The notes: a model not told the origin generated them from the sequence alone. A stretch of 64,000 nt of DNA from an uncultured Actinomycetota bacterium (GCA_963813275.1 CAWEYH010000010.1:127530-191529); one strand, 5' to 3'; shown: positions 28,840 through 64,000, counted from the first letter of the stretch. Program-made: numbers and translations.

Positions 28840-28859
28840 ACAGGTAGGAAGGATCAACC

Positions 28860-31365: not shown

Positions 31366-31401
31366 CCACCATGGAGCACACTCGAAGTGGCCGCGGACAT
31401 C

Positions 31402-32490
31402 TCAGGTGATGGTGTTGATGGCGTCCGACACCTTCTTTTGGAAGTCGGGAGGCATGGGGATATACCCGCTCTTGTTAAGGTCAGTCTGCCCAATCGTGAT
31501 GGTGGACTGCAGGAACCCCTTAACGGCTTTGCCGACCTCGGGGTCGGGGTATTTGGAGCACACAAGCTCGTAGCTGGCTAAAAGGATTGGGTAGACCCCC
31601 TTTTCAGTTGTGCTGTAGATCGATGATAGGTCGAGCACAATGCCGTTGCCCTGGGCATTGATCTTGGCACCGGCGATGGTCTTGCCGACCCAGTCGTCGC
31701 CGATGTGGACGATGCCGGCCGAGGTCTTGATGTCAGCCGCGGCCAATCCCTGGTCCATGGCGAACGACCACTCGTTGTAGCTGATCGCACCCTCGGTGTT
31801 CTTCACCATCGCCGAGGTGCCCTCGTTTCCGGGAGCACCTTGACCCGCCCCGCCCTGAAACACCTTGCCGTTACCGCGGTTCCATGCCCCCGCCGAGGCA
31901 GCTTGGAGGTACCGCTGGAAATTGTCGGTGGTCCCGGATTCATCGCTGCGGTAGACGACGTGGATGTCCTCGGCTGGCATGGATCCGTTCAGCGCGGTGA
32001 TCGCCGGGTCATCCCATCGCGTGATAGTGCCGCTGAATATCCTGGCCAGCGTGGGTGCGTCGAGTGTCAGGACGTCGACCGCGCTGAGGTTGTAGGTGAT
32101 CGCCAGCGGGCCGAATACCACCGGGAGGTTCAAGGCGTCTGCCCCGCCGCATCGCTGCTTGGCTGTGGCGTACTCTTCACCGGCCAGAGGTGAGTCTGAG
32201 CCACCGAAATCGGTCTTGCCGCCGAGGAACTCCTTGATTCCTGCCCCGGAACCGTTGGAGGTGTAGTTCAGGGTCTTTCCGGGGCATGCGTCCCGGTAGG
32301 CCTTGATGAATCGGGTCATCGCGTTGGCCTGAGCGGTGGAGCCGCTCGCTGTCAGATCTTGCTTGCCGGCGCAGTCCACCTTGGCGTCCTTGGCGTATGG
32401 CTGCACGGGGCCACTGGTCGAACATGCTGATATCAGCAGGGCGCTAGCCACCAGCAGGCCCGCCGTGGCGTGGCGTCGGTTGTGCTTCAT
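31402..32490 (-). CDS. pstS: phosphate-binding lipoprotein PstS, extra copy
   Basis: Lipobox [28 protein letters not shown]; AAGGAG RBS. Confidence 0.93.
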
Positions 32491-32604
32491 GTCGTTTGTC
32501 TCCTTGAACGTGGCGACGCGGCCGGTTGGGACGTCTGGTCTGGAACGATGGGAAGTGTTGTGTGCCAACGCTGATGCTCTGCTGACATTGCAGGACGGGA
32601 GCGG

Positions 32605-32826
32605 CTAGTCGCCGAGCGGGCCGACATCAGCGATCAGAGCACGCCGTTGGCCGTCGAGGTGGTGTTGACGAACCCAGGCCTGCGGGAGACTTGGGTTGCG
32701 CAAGTCGGGGTAGACGTCGGCGACCCCAACGGCGACCTGGGCGGTCGGGTCGAGTTCGCGGGCACGCAGCGCGGCGCCGATGCCTGCGTCGCTACCGCCG
32801 ATCGCAACGATATGACGCTCTGCCAT
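32605..32826 (-). pseudogene. internally deleted FAD-dependent (CoA-disulfide reductase-like) oxidoreductase
   Basis: N-terminus IVAIGGSDAGIGAALRARELDP joined after about 40 aa to a C-terminal-like QAWVRQH segment. Confidence 0.7.
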
Positions 32827-32865
32827 TGCAGGCTCCAGTTGTCGAGCGATGGTAGCGGTGCAGCG

Positions 32866-33225
32866 CTATCGCTTAGGTGGCTTGTTCAGGTGTAGCGCGC
32901 GAACGACTGCGCGGGTCTGCCTCGGGGTGGGCAGCTGGTGGGTGACCTTGGTGACGGTGACCTCGATGTCGACAGAGTTGGGGTGCCCCTCACCCAGCTC
33001 GGCCACGATCTGGGCGGCTTGTCGCGCCGACAACGCCATCGCTCCGTTGAGGGCCAGCAGCGGCGAATATCCGGTGCGGGGTGCATCGTCGGGATAGCCA
33101 GCGCGCAGCCAGTCGATGATCGAGCCGAACATGCGGCCGATGCGTGCGCATGTGGTTGGGCGTTGGTGGCTGGCTGCGGAGGCAGAGCCAATTTCCGGCG
33201 ACGCGATGCGGGTGTGGTTACGCAC
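32866..33225 (-). CDS. DUF3349 family protein (start uncertain)
   Basis: IIDWLRAGYP...YSPLLAL...DIEVTVTKVT signature. Confidence 0.75.
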   Translation of the reverse strand: MRNHTRIASPEIGSASAASHQRPTTCARIGRMFGSIIDWLRAGYPDDAPRTGYSPLLALNGAMALSARQAAQIVAELGEGHPNSVDIEVTVTKVTHQLPTPRQTRAVVRALHLNKPPKR

Positions 33226-33886
33226 GGTCGGGCACGTGTAGGTCGGTCAGCAGCCGCCGGACCCGTTCCTCGATGTCGTCGCGGATCGGTCGAACGCCGT
33301 CGAGGTCTTGTCCGGCGGGATCGTCGAGAACCCATTCCTCGTAGCGGCGGCCGGGGAATACCGGGCAGGCATCACCGCAGCCCATGGTGATCACCATGTC
33401 GGCGGCCTGCACGATCTCGTCGGTCCAGGGTTTGGGGTACTCACCGGAGATGTCGATGCCAACCTCGGCCATCGCTTGCACCGCCGCGGGGCTGACTTCG
33501 TTGCCCGGTTCGGAGCCGCCTGACCAGGCCACTGCCCGATCACCGGCCATTTGGGTGAAGAACCCCATCGCCATCTGCGAGCGTCCGGCGTTGTGAGTGC
33601 ACAGAAACAACACGATGGGTTTGCCATCGCTGGATTTGCCTTCCACTTTGGCCAGTGCGCGAAGACGTTGGCGGGCAAAGCGTTCGGCCAGCAGCGGCAG
33701 GAAGTTCGCGATCGAGGCGCGCTTGGCGAACTGGTCATAGGAGGAGTGCAGAAACCGTTCGATGGTTTCCAAGCCGAACATGTCGGTGAACTCGTTCTGC
33801 AGCCGCGTCGCGGCGGTCTTGAGCGACAGCTTCTGATCGATGGACAGGTCGTTGCGCAGATGTGAGGCGGTGGCGTTCTCGGTCAT
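33218..33886 (-). CDS. arsC: thioredoxin-type arsenate reductase with N-terminal three-helix bundle (ArsC1'-like)
   Basis: CTHNAGRSQ, MGCGDACP, LDDPAG; N-terminal ETIERFLHSSY...FLPLLAERFARQRL. Confidence 0.9.
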   Translation of the reverse strand: MTENATASHLRNDLSIDQKLSLKTAATRLQNEFTDMFGLETIERFLHSSYDQFAKRASIANFLPLLAERFARQRLRALAKVEGKSSDGKPIVLFLCTHNAGRSQMAMGFFTQMAGDRAVAWSGGSEPGNEVSPAAVQAMAEVGIDISGEYPKPWTDEIVQAADMVITMGCGDACPVFPGRRYEEWVLDDPAGQDLDGVRPIRDDIEERVRRLLTDLHVPDRA

Positions 33887-33902
33887 GTGCTGCCTTTCGG
33901 TC

Positions 33903-34589
33903 TTAGGCGGACTGCACACAGGGAGCGAAATGCTCAATGCGCGTGATCAATTCGGCGAGTGTTCGATCGAATGTGTCTTTGGTGGGTGTGCGCACCGGAT
34001 CGGCGATCGACCAGTGAATGCGCCGCATGTCCGCAGGCAATTCCTCGTGGACGTTGTCGCACACCGCGATGACCAGGTCATCGTCGGCCAACACGTCGTC
34101 AAGGTGTTGTGGGATGCGAGGCTGCATCGGTAGGTCGTGGCGCTGCGCGGCCGCCAGGGCGCCGGGATGGACCTTCGCGGCCGGTTGAGTGCCTGCCGAC
34201 GTCGCCGGTACCGAACTGCGCCGGTTCCAGATGGCGGCCGCGAGCTGGCTACGTGCGGAGTTCTGCGTGCACACGAAGATCACCCGGTGGGCCCGTTGGG
34301 CGGTGGTAGGAATCATCGCCTCCAATGCGCCGTGATTGAGACGAAGGTAGGTGCGCCGACGGTCGGCCTCGGATCGGCGGCGCTGCACGACACCGGCTTC
34401 TTCGAGGACCCTGAGGTGGTGTGCGACCAGGTTCGACGGCAGGGACAGCATCGCCTGCAACTCACTGGGAGACGCGTCGGCCAAGAGCAGGTGATCGACG
34501 ACAGCGAGTCGACCAGGGTCGCCCAAGGCAGCGTGAATGGCGGCTCGTCGTTGCGGTGGGATTGGCTCGTCAAACATTGACTCAATCAT
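33903..34589 (-). CDS. ArsR HTH fused to an ArsC/LMW-PTP domain
   Basis: HAALGDPGRL...SNLVAHHL HTH, then FVCTQNSARSQ and HWSIADP. Confidence 0.88.
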   Translation of the reverse strand: MIESMFDEPIPPQRRAAIHAALGDPGRLAVVDHLLLADASPSELQAMLSLPSNLVAHHLRVLEEAGVVQRRRSEADRRRTYLRLNHGALEAMIPTTAQRAHRVIFVCTQNSARSQLAAAIWNRRSSVPATSAGTQPAAKVHPGALAAAQRHDLPMQPRIPQHLDDVLADDDLVIAVCDNVHEELPADMRRIHWSIADPVRTPTKDTFDRTLAELITRIEHFAPCVQSA

Positions 34590-34614
34590 TATTGAGGGAG
34601 TTGCACTGAGTCAA
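34577..34614. promoter_or_regulatory. inverted repeats at the start of the ArsR-ArsC fusion gene (putative autoregulatory operator)
   Basis: TTGACTCA...TGAGTCAA and an inner CTCAAT-N4-ATTGAG. Confidence 0.6.
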
Positions 34615-34651
34615 GTCCCCGCGGGAAGACAACGTGTTGTTGGCTTAGCGG

Positions 34652-34690
34652 GTTCATCTTCCGTTCATCTTTGTAAGGCTGTGAGTTCAC
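34652..34690 (+). promoter_or_regulatory. PHO-box-like (RegX3/PhoP-type) direct repeats upstream of pstS
   Basis: GTTCAT at 34652 and 34663, GTTCAC at 34685 (11 and 22 nt spacing). Confidence 0.7.
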
Positions 34691-34813
34691 TGACGGGTCC
34701 TAGGTTCTGGTCCGAGCAGCAACCGAATCTGCTCAACGGAACATTTCGTTCCGTGGCCCCCGGCCCGATGTGGTGGCAACCACGTTGTCCACCCCGACCT
34801 CTCAAGGAGCTAT

Positions 34814-35941
34814 GTGAAGCTCAACCGTTTGGGCGCTGCGCTGAGCCTGATGGCCACCGGCGCCCTGATGTTGACGGCGTGCGGTAGCGACAACAACACG
34901 TCATCCAGTGGATCCAGCCCCACGTCTGGCGCCTCGTCCGCCGCGAAGGTTGATTGCGGTGGTAAGAAATCGTTGAAGGCCAGCGGGTCGACCGCTCAGG
35001 CCAACGCGATGACCCGGTTCGTCAACGCCTACGAGGCGGCCTGCGATGGCTACACCCTGAACTACACCTCGAACGGCTCCGGTGCCGGCGTGAGTGAATT
35101 CACCGGTAAGCAGACCGATTTGGGTGGTTCTGACTCTCCCCTGAATAGAGACAAGGGCGAGTATGACAAGGCCAAAGAGCGGTGCGGTTCGGACGCGTGG
35201 AACCTGCCGGTAGTGTTCGGCCCCATCGCAGTTACCTACAACGTGCCGGGTGTGAGTTCGTTGGTGCTCGATGGGCCGACGACGGCCAAAATCTTCAACG
35301 GCGCGATCACTACATGGAACGATCCGGCCATTGCGGCGCTCAACAGCGGTGCTTCGCTGCCCGGCGATCCAATCCACGTGGTGTTCCGCAGTGATGAGTC
35401 CGGCACAACCGACAACTTCCAGAAGTACCTGGATGCCGCCTCCGACGGCGCGTGGGGCAAGGGCGCGGGCAAGGCCTTCGCCGGCGGTATCGGTGAGGGC
35501 GCCAAAGGCAATGAGGGCACTTCGGCGGCGATCAAGAACACCCCGGGGTCTATTACCTACAACGAATGGTCTTTTGCAAAGGCGCAGAACTTGTCGATCG
35601 CCAAGATCGTCACCTCGGCGGGCCCGGACCCGGTGGACATCACCACCGAGACCGTCGGCAAGACCATCGCGGGAGCCAAGGTCAAGGGCGAAGGCAATGA
35701 CCTGGTGCTGGATACGGCCACTTTCTATAAGCCTGCCGAAGCCGGCTCGTATCCGATCGTGCTGGCCACCTACGAGATCGTCTGCTCGAAGTACCCCGAC
35801 GCCGACACCGGCAAGGCGGTCAAGGCGTTCCTGCAGTCCACCATCGGAGCGGGCCAGGACGGCCTCGCCGACAACGGCTACATCCCGCTGCCGGCTGATT
35901 TCCAGTCGAAGCTGTCGACTGCTGTCAACGCGATCGCTTGA
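34814..35941 (+). CDS. pstS: phosphate ABC transporter substrate-binding lipoprotein
   Basis: Lipobox [22 protein letters not shown]. Confidence 0.96.
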
Positions 35942-35953
35942 TCCGAGGCATCG

Positions 35954-37009
35954 ATGGCCTTACAGCCCGACATCTCGGGATCCTCACGGGCGCCGTCCCT
36001 AGCGGCGGCGCCCGTCGAGGGAGAGACTTCTCGTATGCCTGATCAGCCAGAGCCCACCAAGCCGCCGGGCGCGATCCGAGCCGGCACAGGCCGCGTTGGG
36101 GATCGCGTGTTCAAGGGCATGGCAGTTGCGGCAGGCTCGACGATTGTCATTGCGATCGCGCTGATCGCGATCTTCCTGCTCGTCCGCGCGATTCCATCGC
36201 TGGGCGCCAACCACGCCAACTTCTTCACCAGCGCGGAGTTCAACACCTCCGACGCGGACAACCTGCGGTTCGGCATCCGTGATCTGTTCATGGTCACCAT
36301 TCTCAGCTCCGTGTTCGCCTTGCTGCTGGCCGTCCCCATCGCGATCGGCATCGCGCTGTTTCTTACGCACTATTCGCCGGCGCGATTGTCGCGACCCTTC
36401 AGCGTGTTGATCGATCTCCTCGCCGCGGTGCCCTCGATCATCTTCGGTTTGTGGGGCATCTTCGTGCTGGCCCCGTGGCTGGAGCCGGCGGCGAAATTCC
36501 TCAACGACAATCTGGGTTGGTTCTTCCTGTTCAAACAGGGCAACGTTTCGCTGGCCGGCGGCGGCACCATCTTCACCGCAGGCGTGGTGCTGGCGGTGAT
36601 GATTCTGCCGATCATCACCTCGGTGAGCCGAGAGGTATTCCGACAGACACCGAGCACCCACATTGAAGCCGCCCAAGCCTTGGGAGCCACCAAGTGGGAG
36701 GTCATGCGGATGACTGTTCTGCCCTATGGGCGCAGCGGTGTCATCGCGGCATCCATGCTCGGGCTGGGTCGCGCATTGGGTGAAACAGTTGCCGTGCTGA
36801 TAATCCTGCGTTCTGCCGCGCAGGCGGGGCACTGGTCATTATTCGATGGCGGCTACACCTTCGCCTCGAAGATCGCCTCTGCAGCAGCGGAATTCAGCGC
36901 ACCGCTACCGACCGGGGCATTCATCGCCGCCGGCTTCGTCTTGTTCGCGCTGACCTTCGTGGTCAACGCTGCGGCCCGCGGCATCGCCGGAGGGAGGGTT
37001 AACGGATGA
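35954..37009 (+). CDS. pstC: phosphate ABC transporter permease PstC
   Basis: [33 protein letters not shown]. Confidence 0.95.
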
Positions 37010-37902
37010 CCACATTGGACCGCCCGGTCAAAGGACCGACCTTTCATCCAGTCAGCATCCGTCGGCGCATCACGAACAACGTTGCGTCGTCGTTGTTTGT
37101 CGCTGCTTTTGCTATCGCGCTGGTGCCACTGTTCTGGGTGTTGTTCATAGTCCTCGAAAAGGGCTGGCACGCCGTCATCAAGTCGGGATGGTGGACCCGG
37201 TCCCTGCAGGGTGTACTTCCCGAATCCTTTGCCGGCGGTATCTACCACGCCCTGTACGGCACGCTGGTGCAGGCTGGCATCGCCGCCTTCCTGGCCATCC
37301 CGCTGGGGATCATGGCCGGCATCTACCTCGTCGAGTATGGTCGCGGACCACTGGCGAGGGTTACCACGTTCATGGTCGACGTGCTGGCGGGCGTGCCGTC
37401 GATCGTGGCCGCATTGTTCGTATTCGCACTGTGGATAGCAACGCTGGGATTTTCGCAGAGCGCATTCGCGGTATCACTGGCCTTGGTGCTGCTGATGTTG
37501 CCGGTGGTCGTGCGCTCAACCGAAGAGATGCTCAAACTCGTTCCTGATGAGCTCCGGGAAGCCAGCTATGCGCTGGGCATCCCGAAATGGAAAACCATTG
37601 CGCGCGTTGTTGTGCCAACAGCCCTTCCAGGAATCATCAGCGGCATCTTGCTCGCAATTGCACGCGTGATCGGCGAGACCGCCCCCGTGCTGGTTCTGGT
37701 CGGCTACGCGCGGTCAATCAACTTCAATGTGTTCGACGGCAACATGGCTTCCCTGCCGCTGTTGATCTACACCGAACTGATCAATCCGCAGCCGGCAGGC
37801 CAGATGCGGGTCTGGGGCGCGGCGCTCACACTGATCATTGTGGTGGGCATCTTGATGGTGCTGGCCTCCGTGGCGACTCGTCTTCTTACTCGCAAACGCT
37901 GA
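37006..37902 (+). CDS. pstA: phosphate ABC transporter permease PstA
   Basis: [25 protein letters not shown]. Confidence 0.95.
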
Positions 37903-37919
37903 ATCGACAGGATTCTCAG

Positions 37920-38696
37920 ATGGCTAAACGACTCGATCTCAAGGACGTCAATATCTACTACGGCTCGTTTCACGCGGTCGCCGACGTCGAGCTGTCCGTA
38001 CAACCTCGCAGCGTTACCGCCTTCATCGGGCCCTCAGGGTGCGGCAAGTCGACGGTGCTGCGCTCACTGAACCGCATGCACGAGGTGACCCCGGGTGCTC
38101 GTGTCGAGGGGTCGGTGCTACTCGACGGTGAGGACATCTACGGCGCGGGTATCGACCCGGTGGGTGTCCGAAAGACGATCGGCATGGTGTTCCAGCGGCC
38201 GAATCCGTTCCCCACGATGTCGATTCGCGACAACGTGGTGGCGGGCCTCAAGCTGCAGGGCGTGCGTAGCAAAAAGATGCTCGACGAGGTCGCCGAGCGC
38301 TCGTTGCGGGGCTCGAACCTCTGGAACGAGGTCAAGGACCGGCTGGACAAGCCCGGCGGTGGCCTGTCGGGTGGGCAACAGCAGCGGCTGTGCATCGCCC
38401 GCGCGATCGCCGTGCAGCCCGACGTGTTGTTGATGGACGAGCCGTGCTCTGCGCTCGACCCGATCTCGACACTGGCGATCGAGGATCTGATCGCCGAGCT
38501 GAAGGCGGACTACACGATAGTGATCGTCACGCACAACATGCAGCAGGCCGCCCGGGTGAGCGATCAGACGGCATTCTTCAATTTGGAGGCCACCGGCAAG
38601 CCTGGTCGGCTGGTTGAGATCGACGACACCGAGAAGATGTTCTCCAACCCGGGACAGAAGGCGACGGAGGACTACATCTCCGGCCGGTTCGGCTGA
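37920..38696 (+). CDS. pstB: phosphate ABC transporter ATPase PstB, copy 1
   Basis: [40 protein letters not shown]. Confidence 0.97.
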
Positions 38697-38761
38697 CGCA
38701 TGGCGTCGCCGTCACGCGGAGGGGACGAGAGCGGCGTGACCGGAAGGGCGGGCGACACGAT

Positions 38762-39508
38762 TTGACCATCGAGGTGCGGCGCGCGGACGCGATGTCGGGT
38801 GGAGGTGAGTATGGCGCGGCAACTGCGCCGACGCGAGGCAGCCTGCTGCTTGTAGATAGCGATCCCGCCATCGCCAATCGGTTGATGGACAACGCGGCAC
38901 ATATCGGAATCGACGCAGTTTGGTGCAGCGAAGGCGCGGAAGCGCTTCTTGCAGTCGGAGCCGATCCTCCTGATGTTTTGGTCCTTGCGGCCCAAACCCT
39001 CACTGTCGATTCGGCCACCATCACTGCGGCGGTTCGCGGCCGCTGGGCCATCCCCATCCTCATCGGCTCGGCCCCTGCGACCGACGAATTGACTCGTGAC
39101 GCTTTAGCGGCCGGCGCCTCGGCGGTCATCGCACGTCCCTACAACATCGATGCGATCGCGCCGTTTGCTCTCATTGGTGACCCTCAATCAACCTCTGCCC
39201 CAATCACTTACACTGTTGGCCCTATACACGTTGATCCGCGTGGCTACGAAACACGCGTCCGCGGGCGAGATGTGCAGCTGACGCAACGTGAACTCGACCT
39301 TCTCGTTTATCTCATCCGGCAGCGGGGCAGGGTGGCGAGCAGCGAGGAAATCAGCCGCGCTGTCTGGGGCGGCCCGTCCGACACCAACACCGTGGCGGTT
39401 CATGTCAAGCGGCTGCGAGAGAAGCTCGGTCATGATCCCGAGCACGGCGAGTTCATTCGCACGATCCGCGGAGCCGGCTACCGGCTGGCCCCGTCGATCT
39501 ATGCCTGA
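38762..39508 (+). CDS. orphan OmpR-family response regulator with degenerate receiver domain
   Basis: Winged-helix LTQRELDLL, VAVHVKRLREKL, RTIRGAGY; receiver reads DVLVLA and IARPY. Confidence 0.85.
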   Translation: MTIEVRRADAMSGGGEYGAATAPTRGSLLLVDSDPAIANRLMDNAAHIGIDAVWCSEGAEALLAVGADPPDVLVLAAQTLTVDSATITAAVRGRWAIPILIGSAPATDELTRDALAAGASAVIARPYNIDAIAPFALIGDPQSTSAPITYTVGPIHVDPRGYETRVRGRDVQLTQRELDLLVYLIRQRGRVASSEEISRAVWGGPSDTNTVAVHVKRLREKLGHDPEHGEFIRTIRGAGYRLAPSIYA

Positions 39509-40749
39509 CCTGAGAGGGATTCGAGCGCCGGTATGCCGACGGGCTCATTTGCCACCGGTGTCACCGCGACGCGATCGGCGAGTTCGTTGCGCACCTTGTA
39601 AATCTGGTTGAGTTCCAGGGTCGCACGATGGCGTAACAACGGCGTAGTGGGGGCTGCGGCAGCCACGGAGGTGTTGATGATCCATGCCCAGGGGTGGATG
39701 CCGGCACGCTCGAGGTCTGCTTGCAGCTCGGCCGCCTCGAGTACGGGCGTCGTCTCGGCAAATGTAATCATAAGGATCTTTGTCGCGTCCTTGTCCTGCA
39801 AACTCATCAACGGCGTGACATAGTGCACCCCTCGCACCGTGTGGCGAAGGATCTCGGGGTGATACGCCCCAGTGGTGTCGAGCAGCAGTAGCGTGTGACC
39901 AGTCGGTGCGGTGTCCAGGACCACGAACTGGCGTCGCGACTTCTGGATCACATGCGAGAACTCCTGAATGACCGCAACCTCGTCGTTACACGGTGAACGT
40001 AGATCCTCGGCCAAGCTCTCGCGGGCCTCGTCACCTAGTCGAGCACCTTTGGTGGCCATCACTTTTTCGCGATAGGCGCGGCTCGCCGCTATTGGGTCGA
40101 TTCGCGAGACGCGTAGGTTCCGCACACTGCCGCAAAGAGTTTCGGTGAGGTGAGCGGCCGGATCGGTTGTCGACAGATGTACGGTGTGGCCGCGCTCGGC
40201 CAAAGCCACCGCCACGGCGGCTGCAACCGTCGTCTTCCCGACCCCCCCTTTGCCCATACACATCACGATGCACGGACCGTCCCGCTCGATGTCGTCGATG
40301 AGTGCGCTCAACGGGTGATCCGACAGACCTCGGAGATCCGGCGCCTCTGCCTCGGGAGATGGTGTGGTCGGCTCGAACAGCGTTTCCAACGCCTCGACAC
40401 CCACCATGTTGGTCGGCTTCAACTCTATGAGATCGTGCGGTAGCGAACGCACTTCGGGCGGCATATTCGCCAACGCCTCTTGTTCGCGCCGACGAACCGC
40501 ATCCCCGAGTGCATCTGACTCTGCGGCAAACGCGGGCAGCACACCGTTGACCACGACGTACTGACGAGTGAAGCCGAGTGCTGCCAATTCGCGATGCGTA
40601 CGGTCGATCTCGGTGAGTGCCGAGCGAGTCGGCCTCGCAACGAGCAGCAGCCTCGTGCGGTCGGGGTCCGCCAGAGCGGCGACGGCTGCGGAGTACATCG
40701 CCTTCTGCTTGTCGAGTCCGGCGAGTGGCCCGAGACAGGACGTGGGCAC
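39499..40749 (-). pseudogene. arsA: 5'-truncated arsenical pump ATPase ArsA
   Basis: Begins at SCLGPLAGL; only one P-loop (GKGGVGKTT) and one DTAPTGH are present; first NBD start missing. Confidence 0.85.
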
Positions 40750-40873
40750 CTGCTACATCTGACTCCCCATCATCACACCTTGATCGGAGCAATCTGGCCC
40801 GACTAGTAGTACCGTCGCGGTGTCGCACTCGTGCGGGAAGGTGCATGAGACTGAGGAGGCGTGGGAGCAGCGC

Positions 40874-41650
40874 GTGGCCAAGCGTGTGGAACTCAAGGAC
40901 GTCAACGCCTATTACGGCGCCTTCTGCGCGGTCGCCGATGTGTCGCTCTCTGTGTTGCCGCGCAACGTAATGGCATTCATCGGGCCTTCCGGCTGCGGCA
41001 AGTCGACGTTGCTGCGGGCGTTGAACCGGATGCACGAGGTCATTCCCGGTGCGCGCGTGGAGGGTTCGGTGCTGCTGGACGGCGAGGACGTCTACGGCGC
41101 CGGGGTCGACCCCGTCGGCGTGCGGAAGACCATCGGCATGGTGTTCCAGCGGCCAAACCCCTTCCCCACCATGTCTATTCGCGACAACGTTGTGGCTGGC
41201 CTGAAGCTGCAGGGAATGCGCAACAAGAAGACCCTCGACGAGGTGGCGGAGAAATCCCTCAAGGGTGCGAACCTGTGGACCGAGGTCAAGGACCGGCTCG
41301 ACAAGCCCGGCGGCGGGCTGTCGGGCGGCCAGCAACAGCGGCTGTGCATTGCGCGTGCGATCGCGGTGCAGCCCGATGTGTTGCTGATGGACGAGCCGTG
41401 CTCGGCGCTGGACCCGATCTCGACGCTGGCGATCGAGGATTTGATCGCCGAGCTCAAGCAGGACTTCACGATCGTGATCGTCACGCACAACATGCAGCAA
41501 GCCGCCCGGGTGAGCGACCAGACAGCGTTCTTCAACCTCGAAGCGACCGGCAAGCCGGGCAGGCTGATCGAGATCGACGACACCGAGAAGATCTTCTCCA
41601 ACCCCACCGAGAAGGCGACGGAGGACTACATCTCCGGTCGCTTCGGCTGA
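40874..41650 (+). CDS. pstB: phosphate ABC transporter ATPase PstB, copy 2
   Basis: Same motifs as copy 1, no adjacent permeases. Confidence 0.95.
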
Positions 41651-56138: not shown

Positions 56139-56182
56139 GGTGCCCCCACCAGGGCTCGAACCTGGGACCTGCGGATTAAAAG
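56139..56182 (-). repeat. 3' half of tRNA-Lys(TTT): attachment-site remnant, not a full tRNA
   Basis: Minus strand CTTTTAATCCGCAGGTCCCAGGTTCGAGCCCTGGTGGGGGCACC covers the anticodon loop, T-arm and acceptor 3' strand; D-arm and 5' half are absent. Confidence 0.88.
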
Positions 56183-56324: not shown

Positions 56325-57445
56325 CTAGTGCCGCGTGTTGGAAGTGACTTTACGGTGTGATTTTGGGACAATGATGTGTGTCTGTTGCTGCTGCCCTTGT
56401 TCTTCGGTCCGGTGATGAGTCGAGGCTAAGTTCGCTGGTGCGTTCCTCGACGGTGGAGGCGGGGTTGGCGCAGCGGGCGCGGATCGTGCTGCTGGCTGCC
56501 CAGGGGGTGCCGAACGCGGAAATCGGTCGCCGGGTGGGGGTTTCGCGTCCGACGGTGATTCAGTGGCGCAACCGGTATGAGGCGGGTGGGATATCGGCGC
56601 TGGGTGATCTGGACCGCTCTGGTCGTCCGCCGGTGATCGACGATGTCGCGGTGGTCGTCGCGACCGTTCAGGCGCCGCCCGAGGCGTTGGGGGTCACGCA
56701 CTGGTCGGCTCGGCTGCTGGGCAAGCATTTGGGTATTTCGTTCGCGTCGGTGGCCCGGATCTGGCGGGAATGGAATCTGCAGCCATGGCGGCGCGAGACG
56801 TTCAAGTTCTCCACCGACCCCGAGTTGGACGCCAAGGTTCGTGATGTGGTCGGCTTGTATTTGAACCCCCCCGACAAGGCGGTGGTGGTCTGTATCGACG
56901 AAAAATCGCAGATCCAGGCGCTGGACCGGACCGCGCCGATCCTACCGATCCGCCCCGGGCTGCCCGAGAAAGCCACCCACGACTACGTGCGCCACGGCAC
57001 TACCACCTTGTTCGCGGCCCTGGAGGTGGCGACCGGGAAGGTCACCGACGCCTGCCACCCGCGCCACACTCACGCCGAGTTCCTGGCGTTCCTCAAACAG
57101 GTCGCCAAGGCCTATCCGCGGGTGCCGCTGCACGTCGTGGCCGACAACTACGCCACCCACAAACACCCGACCGTTCAAGCCTGGCTGGCCAAGCACCCGC
57201 GAGTGCGGATGCATTTCACCCCGACCTCCGGATCGTGGCTGAACCTGGTCGAAGTGTTCTTCGGAATCATCACCCGCCAGGCGATCCGGCGCGGCACGTT
57301 CACCTCGGTCAAGGACCTCATCGCCGCCATCGAAACCTTCATCGACGCCTGGAACGACCGCTGCCAACCCTTCGTGTGGACCAAGACCGCCGACGAAATC
57401 CTCACCAAAGCCAACCGTAAAGTCACTTCAAACACGCGACACTAG
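56325..57445 (+). mobile_element. IS630-family element with intact transposase (56378-57445)
   Basis: About 30-bp IRs TAGTGCCGCGTGTTGGAAGTGACTTTACGGT / rc TAGTGTCGCGTGTTTGAAGTGACTTTACGGT, CTAG at both ends; DEKS, DNYATH, SWLNLVE catalytic motifs. Confidence 0.95.
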
Positions 57446-57799: not shown

Positions 57800-58263
57800 G
57801 GCCGATGACGCCGCGGTGCGCACGAGCGTGGAGGCGTTGCGGGCTCCGGGATTCAGCAACCGGATCGCCCCCCGTTGGCCGGTACACGCTTGGTGCTGCG
57901 CTGCTGAGTCGGGGCACCGCGGCCGAGCGTGGTCGCGGGCTTGAGTTGATGGTGCAAGTCCGCGAGGTCGTGCGCCCGCGTGGTCGCTTCCTCGTGCCGG
58001 TCGTCGATTTGTGGGTCGCCCCGGTTAGTGCTAGCGCGCGGCGGCCGCGATGCTGGCATATCTGTGATGCGTCAAGCGGTGAACGAGCTGCACCAATAAG
58101 GACAGCTTTTCTATGGCGGTTGGGGCAGCGGGTTCTGGCGCCGACACTGCTGGCCCGTGCCCGCGCCACGAGACCGCGTACGGCGATTATCGGAGATGGT
58201 CCGCACGTGGCGAAATCGCTGAAGTTTGATGGACACATAGCCCGGGTCGACGCGATGTCGTGA
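57800..58263 (+). pseudogene. decayed C-terminal fragment of a cyclase/ATPase-type protein
   Basis: YTLGAALLSRG.AAERGRGLELMVQ...VPVVDLW resembles tails of mycobacterial cyclase-AAA proteins; no start, broken frame. Confidence 0.4.
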
Positions 58264-58499
58264 CCGCGGCTGCTCCCTCGTGGGTGGTGACGTTTTTGTT
58301 CACCGATGTCGAGAGCTCGACCAGTCGGTGGGAGGCAGACGCCGAGGGGATGAGGTCTGCGCTGGCTGCGCATGACGAGGTGTTGCGCTCGGCGATCGAG
58401 ACGCACGGCGGCTTTCTGTTGAAGCGCACCGGCGACGGTATCTGTGTGGCGTTCAACTCGCCCGAGTACGTAGTCGATGCCGCCGTGGCGCTTAAGTAG
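58260..58499 (+). pseudogene. truncated class III adenylate/guanylate cyclase
   Basis: VTFLFTDVESST...HDEVLR...TGDGICVAF, stops after 79 aa. Confidence 0.8.
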
Positions 58500-58590
58500 A
58501 ACCAAGCCGAGATCGGGCGAGATTGCAGTGGCGCGCTACTGCGCTCGTCGCACCACAGGGCAACCACGATTTCCACTGTGGAGCGAAACA
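58491..58590 (+). promoter_or_regulatory. conserved promoter element, copy 1 (upstream of dxs)
   Basis: AGTAG at 58495, palindrome CAGTGGCGCGCTACTG at 58526-58541, CACGAT at 58565. Confidence 0.75.
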
Positions 58591-58636
58591 TCTGACCCGG
58601 TGGCCGTCGTTTCGCCAGGACATCGCGGAAGGGACG

Positions 58637-60621
58637 ATGATGGGTGGGGCAAGCACATCGGTCGCGTCCGTCGGCCTCAGCGCTGACCGACCTTCGCTGA
58701 CCGGTCCATCCGATCACTTGGCGGTCCTGGGCCGGATCCGGGGTCCGCGTGACTTGCAGGGATTGTCGCGCGATGAGCTGACAAGACTCGCAGATGCGAT
58801 CAGAGCATTCCTCATCGAAAAGGTGTCGGTGTCAGGAGGGACACCTCGGTCCTAACCTTGGTGTGGTCGAGCTGACCATGGCGCTTCATCGGGTATTCGA
58901 ATCACCGCGCGATGCTTTGATTTTCGACACCGGTCATCAGGCCTACCCGCATAAGCTTCTGACGGGTCGCCAAGATGACTTCGACCACTTGCGAGCCTCC
59001 GGCGGCCTGTCGGGGTATCCGTCGCGCGCAGAAAGCGAGCACGACTGGGTCGAGTCTTCGCATGCGTCGGCGGCGCTTTCCTACGCGGACGGGTTGGCAA
59101 AGGCATTCGAATTGACCGGCAGTAAAGATCGCTGCGTGGTCGCGATCGTTGGTGACGGCGCCCTCACCGGTGGAATGTGCTGGGAGGCGATGAACAACAT
59201 CGCTGCCGGCAAGAGCCGTCGCGTCATTGTCGTGGTCAACGACAACGGCAGGTCTTATGCACCGACGATCGGTGGCCTTGCCGAGCGTCTGACCAGCCTG
59301 CGGACGCGTCCGAGGTATGAGCGGCTCCTGGCCGTCAGTGAAAAGGGAACTGACCGGGCTGCCGATGCTCGGACGTCCCACCTATTCGGTACTGCACGCG
59401 GCAAAGAAAGGATTGAAGGATGCATTGAGTCCGCAGACGTTATTCGGAGATTTGGGCATTAAGTATCTCGGCCCGATCGACGGACACGATATTTTCGCGC
59501 TCGAGAAGGCCCTACGGATGGCAAAGGGCGTGGGTGGCCCGGTTATCGTCCACACGGTTACCCGCAAGGGAATGGGATACCGCCCAGCGGAGGAAGATCC
59601 GGCTGATCGCATGCATGCATGCGGACCGATCGATCCTCGAACCGGCAAACCGAAGGCCAACACCGATGTTAGGCAATGGACAGACGTCTTTGCCAGTGAG
59701 CTGCTCCGATGGGGCAGCCGCCGCGACGACCTCGTCGCAATCACCGCCGCCATGCCGGGGCCGACCGGTCTGGCGGCGTTCGGAAAGCGGTTTCCCAACC
59801 GGATGTTCGATGTAGGGATCGCTGAACAACACGCTGTTACATCCGCTGCGGGGCTCGCCCTCGGCGGCATGCATCCGGTGGTCGCCATCTATTCCACGTT
59901 CCTCAATCGGGCCTTCGACCAGGTAATGATGGATGTCGCACTATTGAAACTGCCGGTGACATTAGTTCTCGACCGTGCAGGCATCACCGGGCCCGATGGC
60001 GCCAGCCACAACGGCGTGTGGGACTTGTCACTGCTGGGCATGGTGCCTGGCATGCGAGTCGCCGCCCCACGGGATGCTTCCTCGCTCCGTGAACAGCTCG
60101 GCGAGGCGCTCGAAGTCGATGACGGCCCTACCGCGATCCGGTTCCCGAAGGGATCAGTGGGCGCCGATATAAAAGCCGTAGAACGAATCGAGGGCGTGGA
60201 TATGCTCTGCCGCCCGCATGATCCGGATGTTCTGCTGGTCGCGGTCGGGCCGCTCGCGACAATCGCGTTGACGGCGGCTGCGACACTCGGGGAGCGTGGC
60301 GTGGCCGTCGCGGTAGTGGATCCTCGGTGGGTGCTGCCGGTGCCCGAGCAAGTGGTGAAGTTTGCCGGCAAGGTGCGGCTCGTGGTGACTCTGGAAGAGT
60401 CGGGGCTACACGGCGGGGTTGGGTCGGCCGTGGCGGCCCGGATGCGCGAGGCGCGGATCGACACACCGGTGCGCAGTGTCGGTGTGCCGCAACGATTCCT
60501 CGCTCATGCCGCGCGTAGCGCGATTCACGCCGACCTCGGCCTCGCGGCCGCCGACCTGGTCACCAACATTAGTTTCTGGGTTAAGCGGGCGGCTGACTTC
60601 GAGGCGGACCGGGGCGAATGA
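58637..60621 (+). CDS. dxs: 1-deoxy-D-xylulose-5-phosphate synthase (frameshifts near 58840 and 59340)
   Basis: [63 protein letters not shown]. Confidence 0.93.
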
Positions 60622-60693
60622 CAATGTGCAGCAGAGGATTTGCAGTGGGCGAGGGACCGATGCTGTAGCACACGGCGCCTGACTTGAGCGTCA

Positions 60694-62107
60694 TCAAATA
60701 GGGCACGATAACGTCGGGTTCCCCTTCCGCATGAGGTCGAGCTTGAGCGCCCGGCGGCTGAATCCTGGTCGTTCGGACGAGGCGGTGGGCGCCGTCGAGT
60801 TAAGCCGGGTCGAATTAGTGGTCATGGGTTTGCTCCCTAGACAGCGGGCGAGGGCGGTGAGCTGGAATTGCGTTGCGAGGGCCCGCATAGCGTCGGCGTC
60901 GCAGGGTCGCAGCCGTTCCAGGGCGCCGAAGGCTAGATGGTCGGCGATCATCATGCGGCGCACTTGGAACTCGGGCAGTTCGCCGGTCAGCGGTTCTCCC
61001 GGCAGGGCTTCGACGAGCGCAAAGGTAGCGCCGACGATGAGCGGGCCCACCGAGGGCGGCATCGAGCGCGGATCACCAAGGGCAAGGAGGTCGGCCGCGC
61101 CCGATCGGGCAGCAGGGCTAGCCTTCACCGAGGGGTGGGGCGACGCATCTAACAGACGGTGGATCGCCCCATCGACGGAACAGCGCACTCGCTTCAGCAT
61201 CGTGGTCCAATGAGCAGTTGAGACGGAGGCCAGCACTGCCGCGGCCAGCCGCACCGGTCGCCGGTAGGGTGCGGGCGCTCCGACGGCCGCGCACAAGAAC
61301 GCGGTCGTCGTAATGGTCATATAGGCCATCGCCACCCGGGCGCCGCGACTGTGGATGCACGGGCCGAGCCGGGCCAGCAGGGCGAAGCTGCCCAGCGCGG
61401 GGGCCAGCACGCGTTGCATTACCGCCCGGGTCAGTTCCTCGCGGTCGCAGGCGCCGTACAGCACCAGTTCGCCGTCCCGCAAGTCGTTGGCCAACTGGGC
61501 AGTGACGCCGATGCATCCGGCCAGCTCGCTTAAATCGGCCTCGGCGCAGGCATCTTCGGCGACCAGTGAGCATACGTATAGCATCACCCGTCCGAGCACG
61601 CCCTCGCCGTAGGCGGTCCGCGGCAGCGGGCAATCCAGGTTTAGCGCCATCACCTGGCCGACATCGGCCAACAATCGGCCGATCCGTTTGCGGCCTTCGA
61701 AGGGCAGTTCCGACAGCAGCTCCCGCACGTCGCGGATGCGCTCGGCCAGCACCAGGTCGACCGCTTCGCTGTCGCAGACGGCGATCGCCGGCAGTGGCGG
61801 TGGCGGTGTGTCGGTGTCGCCGTTCAGGTAGTCCACGGCGGTGACGACGGCGCCGGCCGCCAGCGGGCGGGCGCTCAGGTCTTCGTAGGCGTCGAGCACC
61901 CGGCAGGCCAGCAGGGCGGCGGTGGCCTCGGACCGTAGGTCGCGCGGGAAGGAAACCGGCCGCGATGCCGAGGTTTCGGGCCGCCGGGACAATCGCCAGC
62001 CGGGCCAACTCGTCCGGTGACCGGGCCGCCCGCATCGCAGCCAAGTCTGGCGTGCGGTGCAGGTGCCGCAGCCCGTCGGCCAGGGTGCCGAGTCGCCCCC
62101 CGCTCAT
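60694..62107 (-). CDS. divergent squalene/phytoene synthase-like protein (frameshift near 61945; true stop may be near 60837)
   Basis: ARNLGIAAGFLP.DLR...CRVLDAYED (first Asp-rich motif) and QLANDLRD (second motif). Confidence 0.7.
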
Positions 62108-63133
62108 CGGGACACCAGCCGCACCGAGAGTTCGCGCATCTGCTCACGCGCGGGGGAGGGCGGGAATGCATTGATCGCCCGGCAGGCCGTCTGGGCGGCG
62201 CGGACGGCGACGGCACGGGCAGCTCGGGTGGCCCCGCTGCGCACCAGGTCGGCCTGCAGGTCGGCACTGGAAGTCAGCCTGGAGAGCCACATTTCATGGG
62301 ACCCGGGCCGCATGGCCAGCCATTCGATCACCGGCCAGGTCGGCACCCGTCGGTCGAGGTCGCCGGCGGCCTCCTTGCCCAGCGAGGGGCCGCCCTCGAC
62401 GTCGCGGACGTCATCCATGATCTGAAAGGCGAGGGCGAGTTGGTCTGCGTATCGCATCAGGGCGCACAGCTGATTGTGGTCGAGGCCGCCCGCCGTGCCG
62501 CCGTACGAGCAGGCCAGCCGGAACAGCGTGCCAGTCTTCGCCCCGGCCACGAGTTCGTAGTGCCTGCGCATGGCGGCGTCGTCGACGGCAGGTGGCAGGG
62601 TCTCGATGAGCTGCCCGAAAGACAGGTCCGAGATGCGGTCGAGGTAGGTGACGCCGGGGGCCTCACCGAGCCGCGCGAACACCGCCGGGTTGTCGGCCAG
62701 CACTCGTGCGAGTACCTGTAAAGCCGTTGCCGACCAGATGAAATCCCGCCCGGGCGGCGGTGCGGACGCCGAACGCGGCCGGTACTGACGGCGCATCGCG
62801 CCGCAAGAGCGATCCGTCGCAGATGTCGTCGTGAACGAGCGACGCTTCGTGGATCATCTCGATCGCGCACGCCACATCGACGGCGCCGCGCAGCGGCACC
62901 GCGGCAGCCGAGGGCAGCAGACGGGCACAGGCCAGCACCATCGCGGATCGGACCCGTTTACCGGGGACGGCAAGGATGTGACGGTAGATTGCATCGAAAC
63001 CGCCACCGCTAATAAGGATTTCGCGCAACCGATCGCCGACCAGGGGCAACTGATCGGATGGGCTGGTCAGCGAAGGGTGGTCGACGCTGAGGCCGTCGGA
63101 TGCGACCAATATGCTTGCCTCAACCATCATCAT
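62104..63133 (-). CDS. trans-polyprenyl diphosphate synthase (frameshift near 62740)
   Basis: GKRVR, ASLVHDDICD..LRR (FARM), AKTG, FQIMDDVRD (SARM). Confidence 0.88.
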
Positions 63134-63175
63134 TCCTTCTGCGATGTCCTCGAAACACGGCCACCGGATCCGGCG

Positions 63176-63273
63176 TTTCGTTTCACCACAGAAATCGTCG
63201 CTGCCGTGTGGTGCAAGGAGCGCAGTAGTGCGCCACTGCTATCTCGCCCGATTTCGGCGCGGTACTACTTAAG
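63176..63273 (-). promoter_or_regulatory. conserved promoter element, copy 2 (upstream of polyprenyl synthase)
   Basis: Reverse complement aligns with 58491-58590 over about 100 nt. Confidence 0.75.
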
Positions 63274-63620
63274 CCCGATCTTGAGCGACCGGTCGCCGAC
63301 GCCGACAAGCCGGCTCTACTGATCCGCCAAATCCGTACGCGGGACGTCGTCCTTACGCATCCGTTCCCCACGGGCCTGCTGTCCAACGATCGACATGGAG
63401 TCGTCGTTCATCCGCTCGCCGTCGTGACGATTCATGCAGATCGCGTGCAGCTCCGCGAGCCCGTAGATCTGTACTTCGGCGACTTCAAGAACAGCGTCCC
63501 GCCCGCCAGCAGCGTGGGCAGCGCCAGGGTTTCCGATCCGTGGGCGCGGCTCAGCGGCACAACGCAGAGCGTGCGATCTACCGCCGGCAGCCCGAGCAAA
63601 ACAGCTCAATCCTGCGACTG

Positions 63621-63696
63621 AGTAGTACCGCGCCGAGACGAGCGTCGATTGCAGTAGGGCTCTACTGAGAGCCACCCCCCGAATTCGAGTGACGAT
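63621..63696 (+). promoter_or_regulatory. conserved promoter element, copy 3 (upstream of AfsA-like gene)
   Basis: AGTAGTACCGCGCCGAGA...CAGTAGGGCTCTACTG...GACGAT with the same spacing as copies 1 and 2. Confidence 0.72.
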
Positions 63697-63758
63697 CCCT
63701 ATTGCAGTGGTCCTTTGCGTCGGATCGGAGACGGCGCAAACGAGCGGAGGAGGCAACG

Positions 63759-64000
63759 ATGCATGCACTTGCACCGAGTACGCCTCGGGTGATTTCCGGA
63801 CGCACGATTGACACCCTGGACTTGGCGCCAAGCGGAGGCGTTTCTCGCGGGTTTATCCGCGTGGATCTTCAAGACCCTGTGTTCTTCGACCATCCGCTCG
63901 ATCACGTGCCGGGAATGCTGCTGGTGGTGGCTGGTCTTGAATTGGCTGAGCACGCAGCGATGCTGCGGCCGGCCAATGTGAGCTTCCGTCTCACCTTCAC
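63759..64000 (+). CDS. AfsA-related hotdog-domain protein, runs off the window (not in ORF track)
   Basis: GGAGGAGG RBS, ATG 63759; MHALAPSTPRVISGR...VDLQDPVFFDHPLDHVPGMLLVVAG matches the AfsA-family FFDH.xDHVPGMLL motif. Confidence 0.75.
   Translation, partial: MHALAPSTPRVISGRTIDTLDLAPSGGVSRGFIRVDLQDPVFFDHPLDHVPGMLLVVAGLELAEHAAMLRPANVSFRLTF

Follow-up and report, generated by a model that had tools for sequence, protein, structure and literature searches.

A salinipostin-like gene cluster of mycobacteria with a reversed AfsA protein, exchangeable acyl and isoprenoid arms and a predicted prenyl synthase–squalene synthase-fold complex

Salinipostin, the cyclipostins and cyclophostin share a gamma-butyrolactone (GBL)-phosphotriester motif, and genes for the latter two had not been identified by 2020 (bioRxiv 2020.10.11.335315). 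For salinipostin, Spt9 and Spt6 have been shown to act in vitro and the other steps are proposed (Kudo et al., bioRxiv 2020.10.11.335315). Each of the 91 spt-like clusters described so far contains both spt5 and spt6, with Spt1 defined by PF00391/PF01326, Spt7 by PF01040 and Spt9 by PF03756 (Creamer et al., PMC8209734). Here we describe a relative of these clusters in a 64,000-nucleotide stretch of DNA from an uncultured Actinomycetota bacterium (GCA_963813275.1 CAWEYH010000010.1:127530-191529; hereafter the window, or G000:C10:127530-191529, G000 being the source genome) and beyond its right-hand end. The cluster is real and uncharacterised, a salinipostin-like variant marked by an AfsA protein with reversed hotdog halves, by the exchange of an acyl for an isoprenoid arm, and by a predicted complex between an isoprenyl diphosphate synthase (IDS) and a protein of squalene synthase (SQS) fold. 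No paper describing it was found in the open-access literature; relatives may be included in the supplementary tables or files of PMC8209734 and PMC11877004.

A preliminary description, made from the window alone, had placed here a dxs gene, a trans-polyprenyl synthase, an SQS-like gene with a C-terminal extension, an AfsA gene and a tRNA-Lys remnant, all of which were found in those places. Extension to the right, which it had proposed, revealed six further cluster genes past 64000, assigned with Pfam, NCBIfam, tblastn, the PDB and motifs; these genes, the reversed order of the AfsA halves and a ~90-bp element present three times in the window had gone unseen. The centre of the cluster is a salinipostin-like core outside the window and the isoprenoid genes are an exchangeable add-on, which that description missed. 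The parts are as follows, L001 coordinates becoming window positions on addition of 57470.

63759..64000 (L001:6289-7134), plus strand: first part of the AfsA hotdog gene (domain-swapped product of 281 aa, frame intact); PF03756 match of 40.4 bits against a cut-off of 24
L001:7159-7783, plus strand: ICMT-family methyltransferase
L001:7783-10457, plus strand: phosphoenolpyruvate (PEP)-utilising phosphotransferase of RPH/PigC/Spt1 layout
L001:10462-11658, plus strand: P450
L001:11652 to ~12540, plus strand: UbiA-like Spt7 homologue
L001:12561-13587, minus strand: IDS2, an IDS-like prenyltransferase
L001:13589-14065, minus strand: MmpL, last 158 codons, cut at the junction with foreign DNA
63133-62104, minus strand: IDS1, a trans-isoprenyl diphosphate synthase (PF00348, motifs, PDB)
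62107 to ~60820, left end approximate, minus strand: SQS-like gene, squalene synthase fold plus C-terminal extension (fold, Atlas, predicted complex)
58637..60621, plus strand: dxs, an extra 1-deoxyxylulose-5-phosphate synthase copy (Pfam DXP_synthase_N/Transket_pyr/Transketolase_C; tblastn 90% to an intact homologue)
58488..58577, plus strand: ~90-bp element before dxs (inverted repeats I1/I2, 82%; nhmmer E 6e-21)
63187..63276, minus strand: ~90-bp element before IDS1 (nhmmer E 1e-23)
63614..63704, plus strand: ~90-bp element before the AfsA operon (repeat D6; nhmmer E 7e-20)

The gene order AfsA-ICMT-PEP-P450-UbiA, followed here by IDS2 and MmpL facing the opposite way, recurs in 23 of 24 mycobacterial loci (L001, L013-L034 and L102/103, with wider flanks in L104-L107); L029 has neither the PEP-utiliser nor the UbiA-like gene, and the PEP-utiliser of L027 is shortened. 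The PEP-utilising protein carries both PF01326 and PF00391, the pair that marks spt1 homologues, and its best model, PRK06241.2-2 (527 bits), is also passed by an spt1-like protein (910 bits). The UbiA-like protein scores below the PF01040 cut-off (19.4 bits, as a fragment); it aligns at 21–32% with spt7-like proteins in tblastn and has the same best NCBIfam model. Thus the locus has Spt1-, Spt7- and Spt9-type genes in one operon, a lipid-tail arm and Mycobacterium hosts in common with the salinipostin and spt-like clusters (Creamer et al., PMC8209734). It differs from them in having neither the Spt2-5 fatty-alcohol arm nor Spt6, in its reversed AfsA halves, and in adding ICMT, P450, MmpL and either a polyketide synthase (PKS) with an acyltransferase or an isoprenoid arm; the spt1- and spt7-like proteins of true spt-like clusters are 21–32% identical to its own (roughly 30%). 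Without Spt5 and Spt6 it falls outside the published definition of an spt-like cluster, though it may work alike. Canonical spt-like clusters were also seen in mycobacteria (L040, L041 and L042, in G043, G055 and G011), two of them with an added glycosyltransferase and a P450-like gene.

Cyclophostin, like the cyclipostins a Streptomyces phosphotriester, carries a methyl phosphate ester, which would suit an ICMT-family methylase. LmtA, which we take to be kin of ICMT, is named as a phosphate-methylating enzyme by its NCBIfam model, and the cluster ICMT did not match that model. To our knowledge, no prenylated member of the cyclophostin/cyclipostin group has been described. Among the literature matches listed, no paper addressed cyclophostin cluster genes by title and none concerned LmtA.

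The open reading frame (ORF) at 63759, proposed earlier to encode an AfsA hotdog protein, does match that family. Like the GBL synthases AfsA, ScbA and BarX, its product is a PF03756 double hotdog with DHxPG and ExxRQ motifs; unlike them, it has the DHxPG half first, falls below the ScbA cut-off and has no receptor or BprA gene in view. Against the ScbA model NF041195 it scores 66.9 bits (cut-off 200), with residues 23–114 on profile positions 188–286, so that what is the C-terminal half in ScbA models comes first here and the two hotdog halves are reversed. Only one ExxRQ motif is kept, and the leading DHxPG half has none. Across 44 AfsA-like frames from sampled loci (3 repeats included), the DHxPG half lies near the C-terminal end in 42, 14 of which have the other half scored ahead, and first in 2 (G073, G347). 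The best 150 of 1,335 library hits comprise 135 reversed, 2 canonical and 13 unclassified proteins; judged by these matches, the reversed form is a wide family, with named members in Micromonospora and Actinomadura among ten looked up. Asp44, His45, Asp48, His49, Glu189, Arg192 and Gln193 are near-invariant in it, and the equivalents of E78 and R81 of ScbA-type GBL synthases are kept as Glu189 (E in 124 and D in 11 of 136) and Arg192 (135/136).

Longer proteins of the reversed family (14 scanned) carry ketosynthase domains in nine cases, an acyltransferase piece in one, a nitroreductase in one and nothing else in three, and the fusion to ketosynthases ties the form to beta-ketoacyl thioesters. 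PKS-fused forms thus occur in this family, as they do in the PKS-terminal AfsA domains of gladiostatin (PMC7756379) and gladiofungin (PMC7756420). Ten such proteins (P0330, P0375, P0311, P0352, P0360, P0361, P0364, P0376, P0389 and P0271) place the reversed AfsA behind AMP-ligase/PKS/thioesterase modules, lone ketosynthases or a nitroreductase. By analogy with FabZ-type hotdogs, a single intact site would draw its His from one AfsA half and its Glu from the opposite half. A search with the AfsA against PDB sequences gave 0 hits at E 10, and no relevant report linking AfsA with circular permutation was among the literature matches listed.

To define the distribution of the cluster, we scanned 185,579 species genomes, which yielded 22 loci at 58–98% identity, those named to genus being all mycobacterial, plus one canonical Streptomyces AfsA. 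Soil isolates with the cluster intact are among the named records, for example Mycolicibacterium rhodesiae JS60 and Mycobacterium sp. OAS707. An even draw of 400 genus genomes gave 24 matches to the AfsA profile, 14 of this form at full length and 10 over one half only (that is, canonical AfsA); co-occurrence, which the preliminary description had made a test, holds elsewhere, 13 of those 14 genomes having the SQS-like gene too. Among the 24 mycobacterial loci, 17 carry IDS1, SQS-like and IDS2, five carry a reducing type I PKS with a KASIII-like gene, and two have neither arm complete; the KASIII-like gene and IDS2 are never found together (0/24), and L020 retains a PKS piece beside its isoprenoid arm. 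The KASIII-like protein is nearest to ChlB3 (E 7e-60) and CerJ (2.5e-38), with FabH at only 1e-4; ChlB3 is titled an acyltransferase (PMC9573744), and by sequence likeness the protein is of the ChlB3/CerJ acyltransferase type.

Five non-mycobacterial clusters (G073, G347, G957, G1169 and Streptomyces durmitorensis plasmid p1) all have reversed AfsA, PEP-utiliser and P450 genes, with ICMT in four, a nitroreductase in four, a thymidylate-kinase-like gene in three, either a UbiA-like gene (three) or a nucleotidyltransferase (two) but never both, an adjacent KASIII-like gene in three and isoprenoid genes in none. The S. durmitorensis copy (L162:4669-14991) is a compact core of reversed AfsA, ICMT, nitroreductase, PEP-utiliser, P450, NTF2, nucleotidyltransferase, thymidylate kinase and two KASIII genes, and is well suited to testing for a cyclophostin-type product. 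In the AfsA tree the PKS-type rows are deepest and the isoprenoid label requires two changes, with bootstrap values that leave this unsettled; the P450 tree agrees on two, and the PEP tree allows one (FastTree was used for all trees but AfsA, copies with a stop or a best single hit under 75% coverage were excluded, and the output was partial for the UbiA tree and the head of the SQS-like tree). Because the PKS-type rows are deepest and the non-mycobacterial clusters have no isoprenoid genes, the isoprenoid arm, on this sequence evidence, most likely took the place of an older acyl arm within mycobacteria. Ten cluster genes, dxs not among them, showed dN/dS values of 0.16–0.55 (2–6 pairs each), indicating purifying selection.

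Next, we analysed the isoprenoid genes of the window. IDS1 matches PF00348 (152.8 bits for an intact homologue), which bears out its assignment as a polyprenyl synthase, and its GKRxR, first aspartate-rich (FARM) plus RR, KT and second aspartate-rich (SARM) motifs are each intact in 23–26 of 27 rows. The small residues noted before the FARM are present, Ala and Ser standing at -5/-4 ahead of the first Asp of HEASLVHDDICD. The stop of IDS1 overlaps the start of the SQS-like gene as ATGA in all eight loci shown. The SQS-like protein did not pass the PF00494 check proposed earlier: it had no Pfam match (E 0.1) and no NCBIfam match, so the profile left the name unconfirmed, whereas fold comparison and Atlas agree on it. 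Its alignment-based model (predicted local distance difference test, pLDDT, 73.7) matches squalene synthases in Foldseek (E 7e-5) and superposes on a squalene synthase structure with Z 22.2 and a root-mean-square deviation of 3.5 over 283 aligned residues, and Atlas ranks SQS_PSY clusters first (0.92, 177/256 features). By its predicted structure, then, the protein has the head-to-head synthase fold. An alignment-free fold (pLDDT 39.5) was discarded, and the lone match of its profile among PDB sequences was a globin, by chance.

The top structural matches were SQS, CrtM, YisP and CqsB4 structures (Z 22.2, 21.2, 17.9, 14.6 and 14.3), and the likeness extends to Arg44, Arg69, Tyr164, Gly170, Gln202, Arg208 and Asp209, kept in 41–45 of 45 rows. 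Unlike these enzymes, to which it is only 11–17% identical, the SQS-like protein has no PF00494 match and bears an extension predicted to bind IDS1. That extension, noted in the preliminary description, is real and conserved: mean conservation is 0.83 over residues 353–417 as against 0.50 in the linker, and 14 of the 46 invariant columns of the family fall in residues 354–416. No SQS-like match was found among 72,556 plasmids. The intact loci hold no CrtI-type desaturase or squalene-hopene cyclase gene (the genome at large was not searched), and by local gene content the locus is, as first thought, neither a carotenoid nor a hopanoid one. The dxs gene is dispensable to the cluster, since it is whole in only nine of 17 isoprenoid-type loci (it lies outside the fetched stretch in seven and is cut off in one).

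Prediction of IDS1 together with the SQS-like protein gave a complex score of 0.83 (median of three runs) as against 0.00 for the best of three controls. The mark set for this score is reached by 116 of 157 solved pairs and 2 of 215 mismatched pairs, counts that hold roughly here because the runs used our own alignments; contacts agreed between runs at >=93% and partner pLDDT was >=76. The C-terminal extension of the SQS-like protein is thereby predicted to dock on IDS1, residues 359–419, almost wholly within the extension, lying on IDS1 residues 98–178, a region that we take to correspond to the dimer-face helices of trans-IDS enzymes. Heteromeric prenyl diphosphate synthases of the HepS/HepT and HexA/HexB type are comparable in that a partner would cover the dimer face of the catalytic subunit, but differ in that the partner piece here is a tail of ~60 residues, attached to a complete domain of SQS fold and unlike IDS1 in sequence (probability 0.1). 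Likeness to solved heteromeric synthases may have helped the score. No natural IDS1–SQS fusion appeared among longer proteins in a weak search, whose sole hit, P0399, is a metagenomic protein of 767 aa fusing an SQS-like domain to a desaturase; it is a single member and may be a read-through.

IDS2 keeps the FARM without the RR behind it, and its SARM is altered to RQLxNDQRD in 19 of 19 rows, with no DDxxD. In its FARM, altered SARM and missing RR it resembles the trans-IDS-like prenyltransferases ComQ, PalQ, ChrPC and Ord1 (PMC13290415); it differs in that no conserved peptide gene lies upstream of MmpL-IDS2 in nine loci, the interval between the 90-bp element and MmpL being the only stretch searched. 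Streptomyces plasmids carry IDS2-like, DUF2332, P450 and Cys-ended peptide genes together (L164:9622-10954, L165:8332-14452, L166:9547-13940), candidates for prenylated ribosomal peptides, with six copies of the peptide gene in S. clavuligerus.

The origin of the IDS1/SQS-like pair was traced through loci that do not have this AfsA form. Behind the pair, these loci have a gene of the fatty-acid desaturase family (by Pfam in six of six tested) and one for an MddA-like methyltransferase (213.8 bits against a cut-off of 270 in the one tested); MmpL, carotenoid oxygenase and dxs are often present as well, and ispH and ispG in one case. The core-linked IDS1 and SQS-like proteins each form one clade (Shimodaira–Hasegawa-like support 94 and 99) inside these relatives, the desaturase having been lost. 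The desaturase operon (L155, C15:9000-28999; L140-L147), often with a flavin monooxygenase or F420 reductase, constitutes a second uncharacterised terpenoid operon; its C15 copy has a tRNA-Lys remnant on one side and a whole tRNA-Lys on the other. Named homologues of the SQS-like protein also come from Nocardia and slow-growing mycobacteria, and our literature search found no paper describing an SQS-like/polyprenyl synthase/desaturase terpene locus of mycobacteria.

The ~90-bp element, with its inverted core CAGTRG-N4-CTACTG, stands ~55 bp ahead of dxs, IDS1 and AfsA in the window. Its profile gave 93 hits in 49 stretches, ahead of AfsA (23), MmpL (22), IDS1 (20), dxs (9), PKS (6), PEP (1) and other genes (12), and it precedes AfsA in all 23 loci scanned. 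No copy was found in 12 core-less IDS1/SQS-like loci, four non-mycobacterial stretches or two spt-like loci. An 870-aa AAA-LuxR regulator, the likely candidate to bind the element, is encoded near the cluster in eight of 49 stretches (seven at 65–100% to the L104 query, one at 40%); the closest G000 copies are on C2 and C9, not C10. Five further copies of the element (C10:72498, C10:78615, C7:400953, C9:45722 and C15:25381) stand in front of other operons, including a PKS/AMP-ligase/ABC locus and, beside an AAA-LuxR gene, a PKS–nonribosomal peptide synthetase (NRPS), which makes this a regulon common to several lipid pathways. Scans for sigma-70 promoters and terminators gave nothing above shuffled sequences.

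These data allow us to propose a pathway. The genes and their order, the arrangement of domains, the motifs, the selection on the genes and the common upstream element are observed; each reaction is inferred. We tentatively favour, at a little short of an even chance, a single pathway under common regulation whose product is a butenolide phosphate that is both prenylated and methylated. The salinipostin-like core of AfsA, ICMT, PEP-utiliser, P450 and UbiA-like proteins would build a methylated butenolide or butyrolactone phosphate, and the isoprenoid arm would supply a polyprenyl tail and attach it where sister clusters have a polyketide acyl tail. From the chemistry of its family, AfsA likely condenses dihydroxyacetone phosphate with a host fatty-acid beta-ketoacyl thioester to a butenolide phosphate, a step consistent with the near-invariant DHxxDH and single ExxRQ motifs and with the fusion of the same form behind ketosynthases. 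The PEP-utiliser and UbiA-like protein would then activate and close or bridge the phosphate, as presumed for Spt1 and Spt7; methylation of a phosphate or enol oxygen is the likely task of the ICMT-family enzyme, and hydroxylation that of the P450. Precursor supply would be raised by dxs, and IDS1, predicted to be bound by the SQS-fold extension, likely makes a C20 or longer prenyl diphosphate that the SQS-fold site may further convert. IDS2 would transfer the chain, taking the role of the ChlB3/CerJ-like acyltransferase of PKS-type clusters, and MmpL would export the lipid. A more specific version, in which soil mycobacteria make a prenyl-tailed cyclic phosphotriester lactone as the isoprenoid equivalent of cyclipostin and salinipostin, the reversed AfsA clusters include the cyclophostin type and the tail is made by a novel two-protein enzyme whose SQS-fold partner grips the prenyl synthase by its C-terminal extension and takes over the prenyl product, we regard as rather unlikely.

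Several observations weigh against a single pathway. The AfsA equivalents of E240/R243, reported as essential in ScbA (PMC13454427), are absent, replaced by Val57/Leu60 (Glu in 35/136, Leu60 in 101/136), and the Asp motifs of the SQS-like protein are incomplete, the second ending RDGEL and the first-motif Asp residues being present in 38 and 37 of 45 rows; this gene is also under the weakest selection of the ten (dN/dS 0.34–0.55). Spt6 is a diphosphate kinase needed for salinipostin (bioRxiv 2020.10.11.335315), yet the nucleoside diphosphate kinase, reductase and AMP-ligase of L040 found no tblastn match of at least 35% in any AfsA-bearing locus (the right end of the present copy being missing), and no butenolide reductase is encoded in the mycobacterial loci, whose other cluster genes are all assigned. 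The SQS-like and IDS1 trees indicate a single recruitment, so that the count of 17 loci against 5 reflects few independent events. A strong SQS-like match occurs in 25 of the 400 genus genomes, 12 of them without reversed AfsA (in G814 the core is cut by the contig end), and G000 itself has the IDS1/SQS-like pair three times. In G622 (L150, G622:C84), dxs, SQS-like, IDS1, PEP, P450, UbiA, IDS2 and MmpL genes stand together with AfsA ~40 kb away on the same contig. The element profile was seeded on these loci's own copies, and the ten hits in G000 include ones ahead of a PKS-NRPS, a PKS/ABC operon and the C15 desaturase operon, so the element indicates a regulon and not one product. All characterised trans-IDS-like prenyltransferases act on tryptophan (PMC13290415), and Streptomyces relatives of IDS2 (29–35%) adjoin short Cys-ended peptide genes in three of four regions opened; by analogy with these kin, the IDS2 acceptor may be an amino acid.

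Several of these points would suit two products under one regulator: a tail-less, cyclophostin-like methylated butenolide phosphate and a separate, MmpL-exported terpenoid (a head-to-head hydrocarbon, prenyl alcohol or prenylated amino acid) from IDS1, SQS-like, IDS2 and dxs. Such a division, possible if unlikely, is consistent with the occurrence of IDS1 and SQS-like without AfsA, with the other operons headed by the element, with two Streptomyces core clusters that have no adjacent tail-transfer gene and with the likeness of IDS2 to tryptophan or peptide prenyltransferases; it does not account for the loss of the acyltransferase wherever IDS2 is present, for the shedding of the desaturase and MddA-like partners by the recruited pair, for the restriction of IDS2 to this core among the mycobacterial loci examined, or for the presence of the isoprenoid arm on two core lineages. 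We consider it improbable that the product is a prenylated lactone with no phosphotriester in it; in that case the prenyltransferase would be the UbiA-like protein, and the PEP-utiliser, like PigC and RedH, would phosphorylate a carbonyl only to drive condensation. The UbiA-type DDxxD..YD motif is kept in 20 of 21 rows, the PEP-utiliser scores 253 bits with the RedH and 220 bits with the PigC model, and the mycobacterial loci have no diphosphate kinase, but the best PEP-utiliser model fits an spt1-like protein as well, and the UbiA-like protein is probably not prenyl-transferring because it occurs in isoprenoid-free clusters, salinipostin's included, and is replaced by a nucleotidyltransferase in two of the five outside clusters.

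Two further readings concern signalling and decay. That AfsA makes an A-factor-type hormone switching on a neighbouring terpenoid pathway seems to us the least probable account. The PF03756 hit and the occurrence of GBLs outside Streptomyces (PMC11877004) would fit it, but AfsA lies in an operon with four tailoring enzymes, its domain order is reversed and its divergent neighbour is IDS1 (16/24 loci) or a PKS or PKS piece (7/24; 1 unclear), leaving no ArpA/TetR receptor in that place in 23 of the 24; moreover, PMC11877004 reports no GBL detected in three mycobacteria with a low-similarity afsA, which may or may not be of this form. Among the product options of the preliminary description, a prenylated lactone accordingly fits best, and a signal-controlled terpenoid fits poorly because AfsA heads a five-gene tailoring operon, faces no such receptor and is not a canonical ScbA. 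Equally improbable, or nearly so, is that the cluster of this strain has decayed and makes nothing, which would leave intact relatives unaffected. This copy carries ~30 private frameshifts over 13 kb relative to four relatives and its MmpL gene is cut, while 14 of 15 housekeeping queries matched at >=65%, each as one unbroken hit; genome-wide frameshifting, which we tested, is not supported by these hits, so errors are patchy. Yet all but two events are insertions, none falls in the AfsA gene, well-aligned stretches are 96–98% identical to the nearest relatives, the housekeeping dxs of G000 is also split into three pieces, and the contig is chimeric just past the cluster. Within the window, 1-base insertions lie near 58840 and 59335 in dxs, and further insertions near 62725 in IDS1 and 61941 in SQS-like, whose 1-base loss near 60848 makes the last ~45 residues of the open frame a run-on; among the matches listed to independent short-read contigs, the insertions at 59335 (X1, X9, X15), 61940/61942 (X1, X9) and 62726 (X2, X9) are absent. 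Assembly error is most likely the cause; for the broken genes, protein work used intact homologues. RNA runs covered at most 14% of words; contigs of one run span parts of dxs, SQS-like, IDS1 and AfsA, which does not by itself demonstrate transcription.

The source genome (6.8 Mb, 83.9% complete, 3.3% contaminated) has nearest relatives named Mycobacterium or Mycolicibacterium. Two further features mark the island that holds the cluster:

56139..56182, minus strand: 3' half of tRNA-Lys(TTT), an attachment (att) remnant that forms the island's left edge (93% identical over 44 nt in blastn, E 4e-12)
56378..57445, plus strand: DDE_3 transposase, an island passenger (Pfam PF13358)

ARAGORN found no whole tRNA in the window. 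Contig C15 has the same tRNA-Lys remnant together with a whole tRNA and an integrase-like ORF, 28.6 kb apart, and on both C9 and C15 the whole tRNA-Lys adjoins an integrase-like ORF (labelled by eye). Flanks vary among carriers, with recN/steA at L033, aceE at L102 and other genes at L018 and L030 (also labelled by eye); varying flanks, the att remnant and transposases together support a mobile island, in line with the earlier suggestion of a horizontally acquired, uncharacterised pathway joining isoprenoid and AfsA-family genes. GC content (0.62–0.70) gives no sharp island signal, nor does composition single the island out (tetranucleotide distance 14.6–18.0; null 95th percentile 20.3). MmpL breaks at ~C10:199,065, past which the contig continues as foreign DNA with DUF1489, OmpA/MotB, inositol monophosphatase, EF-P and integrase genes and a tetranucleotide distance of 26.4, over the null 99th percentile; full-length plasmid matches of the MotB-like protein there are Shinella and Sinorhizobium. 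The junction is a probable mis-join in a chimeric contig, and the right end of the island is thus missing from this copy.

Other observations were made alongside. The foreign stretch (L001:14066-20000 and L002, C10:199,065-208,090) has alphaproteobacterial-like genes including MotA/MotB-like, inositol monophosphatase and EpmA-like ones. Duplicated tRNA clusters and kasA/B-accD6 copies (C9/C15, C1/C14, C16/C18) suggest that the G000 assembly mixes two strains. Window positions 28400-41650 form a lower-GC stretch (0.61–0.64) with arsenic-resistance and phosphate-transport genes (labels by eye), probably another island, and 58260-58499, directly before dxs, is a remnant of an adenylate-cyclase/AAA gene, whole copies of which flank many clusters and number more than ten in G000.

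Natural phosphotriesters such as salinipostin, the cyclipostins and cyclophostin are drug leads against malaria parasites and mycobacteria. The swaps that nature has made in this family, of the UbiA-like protein for a nucleotidyltransferase and of acyltransferase plus PKS for IDS2 plus IDS1, open the functions of Spt1 and Spt7 to direct testing in cultured soil isolates. The single Glu/Arg motif of the reversed AfsA hints at which half-site is the catalytic one, and the form marks more than 100 sequence clusters for which the canonical ScbA model would give low scores. Whichever product is made, the predicted complex of IDS1 with an SQS-fold partner is a testable new architecture for terpene synthesis.

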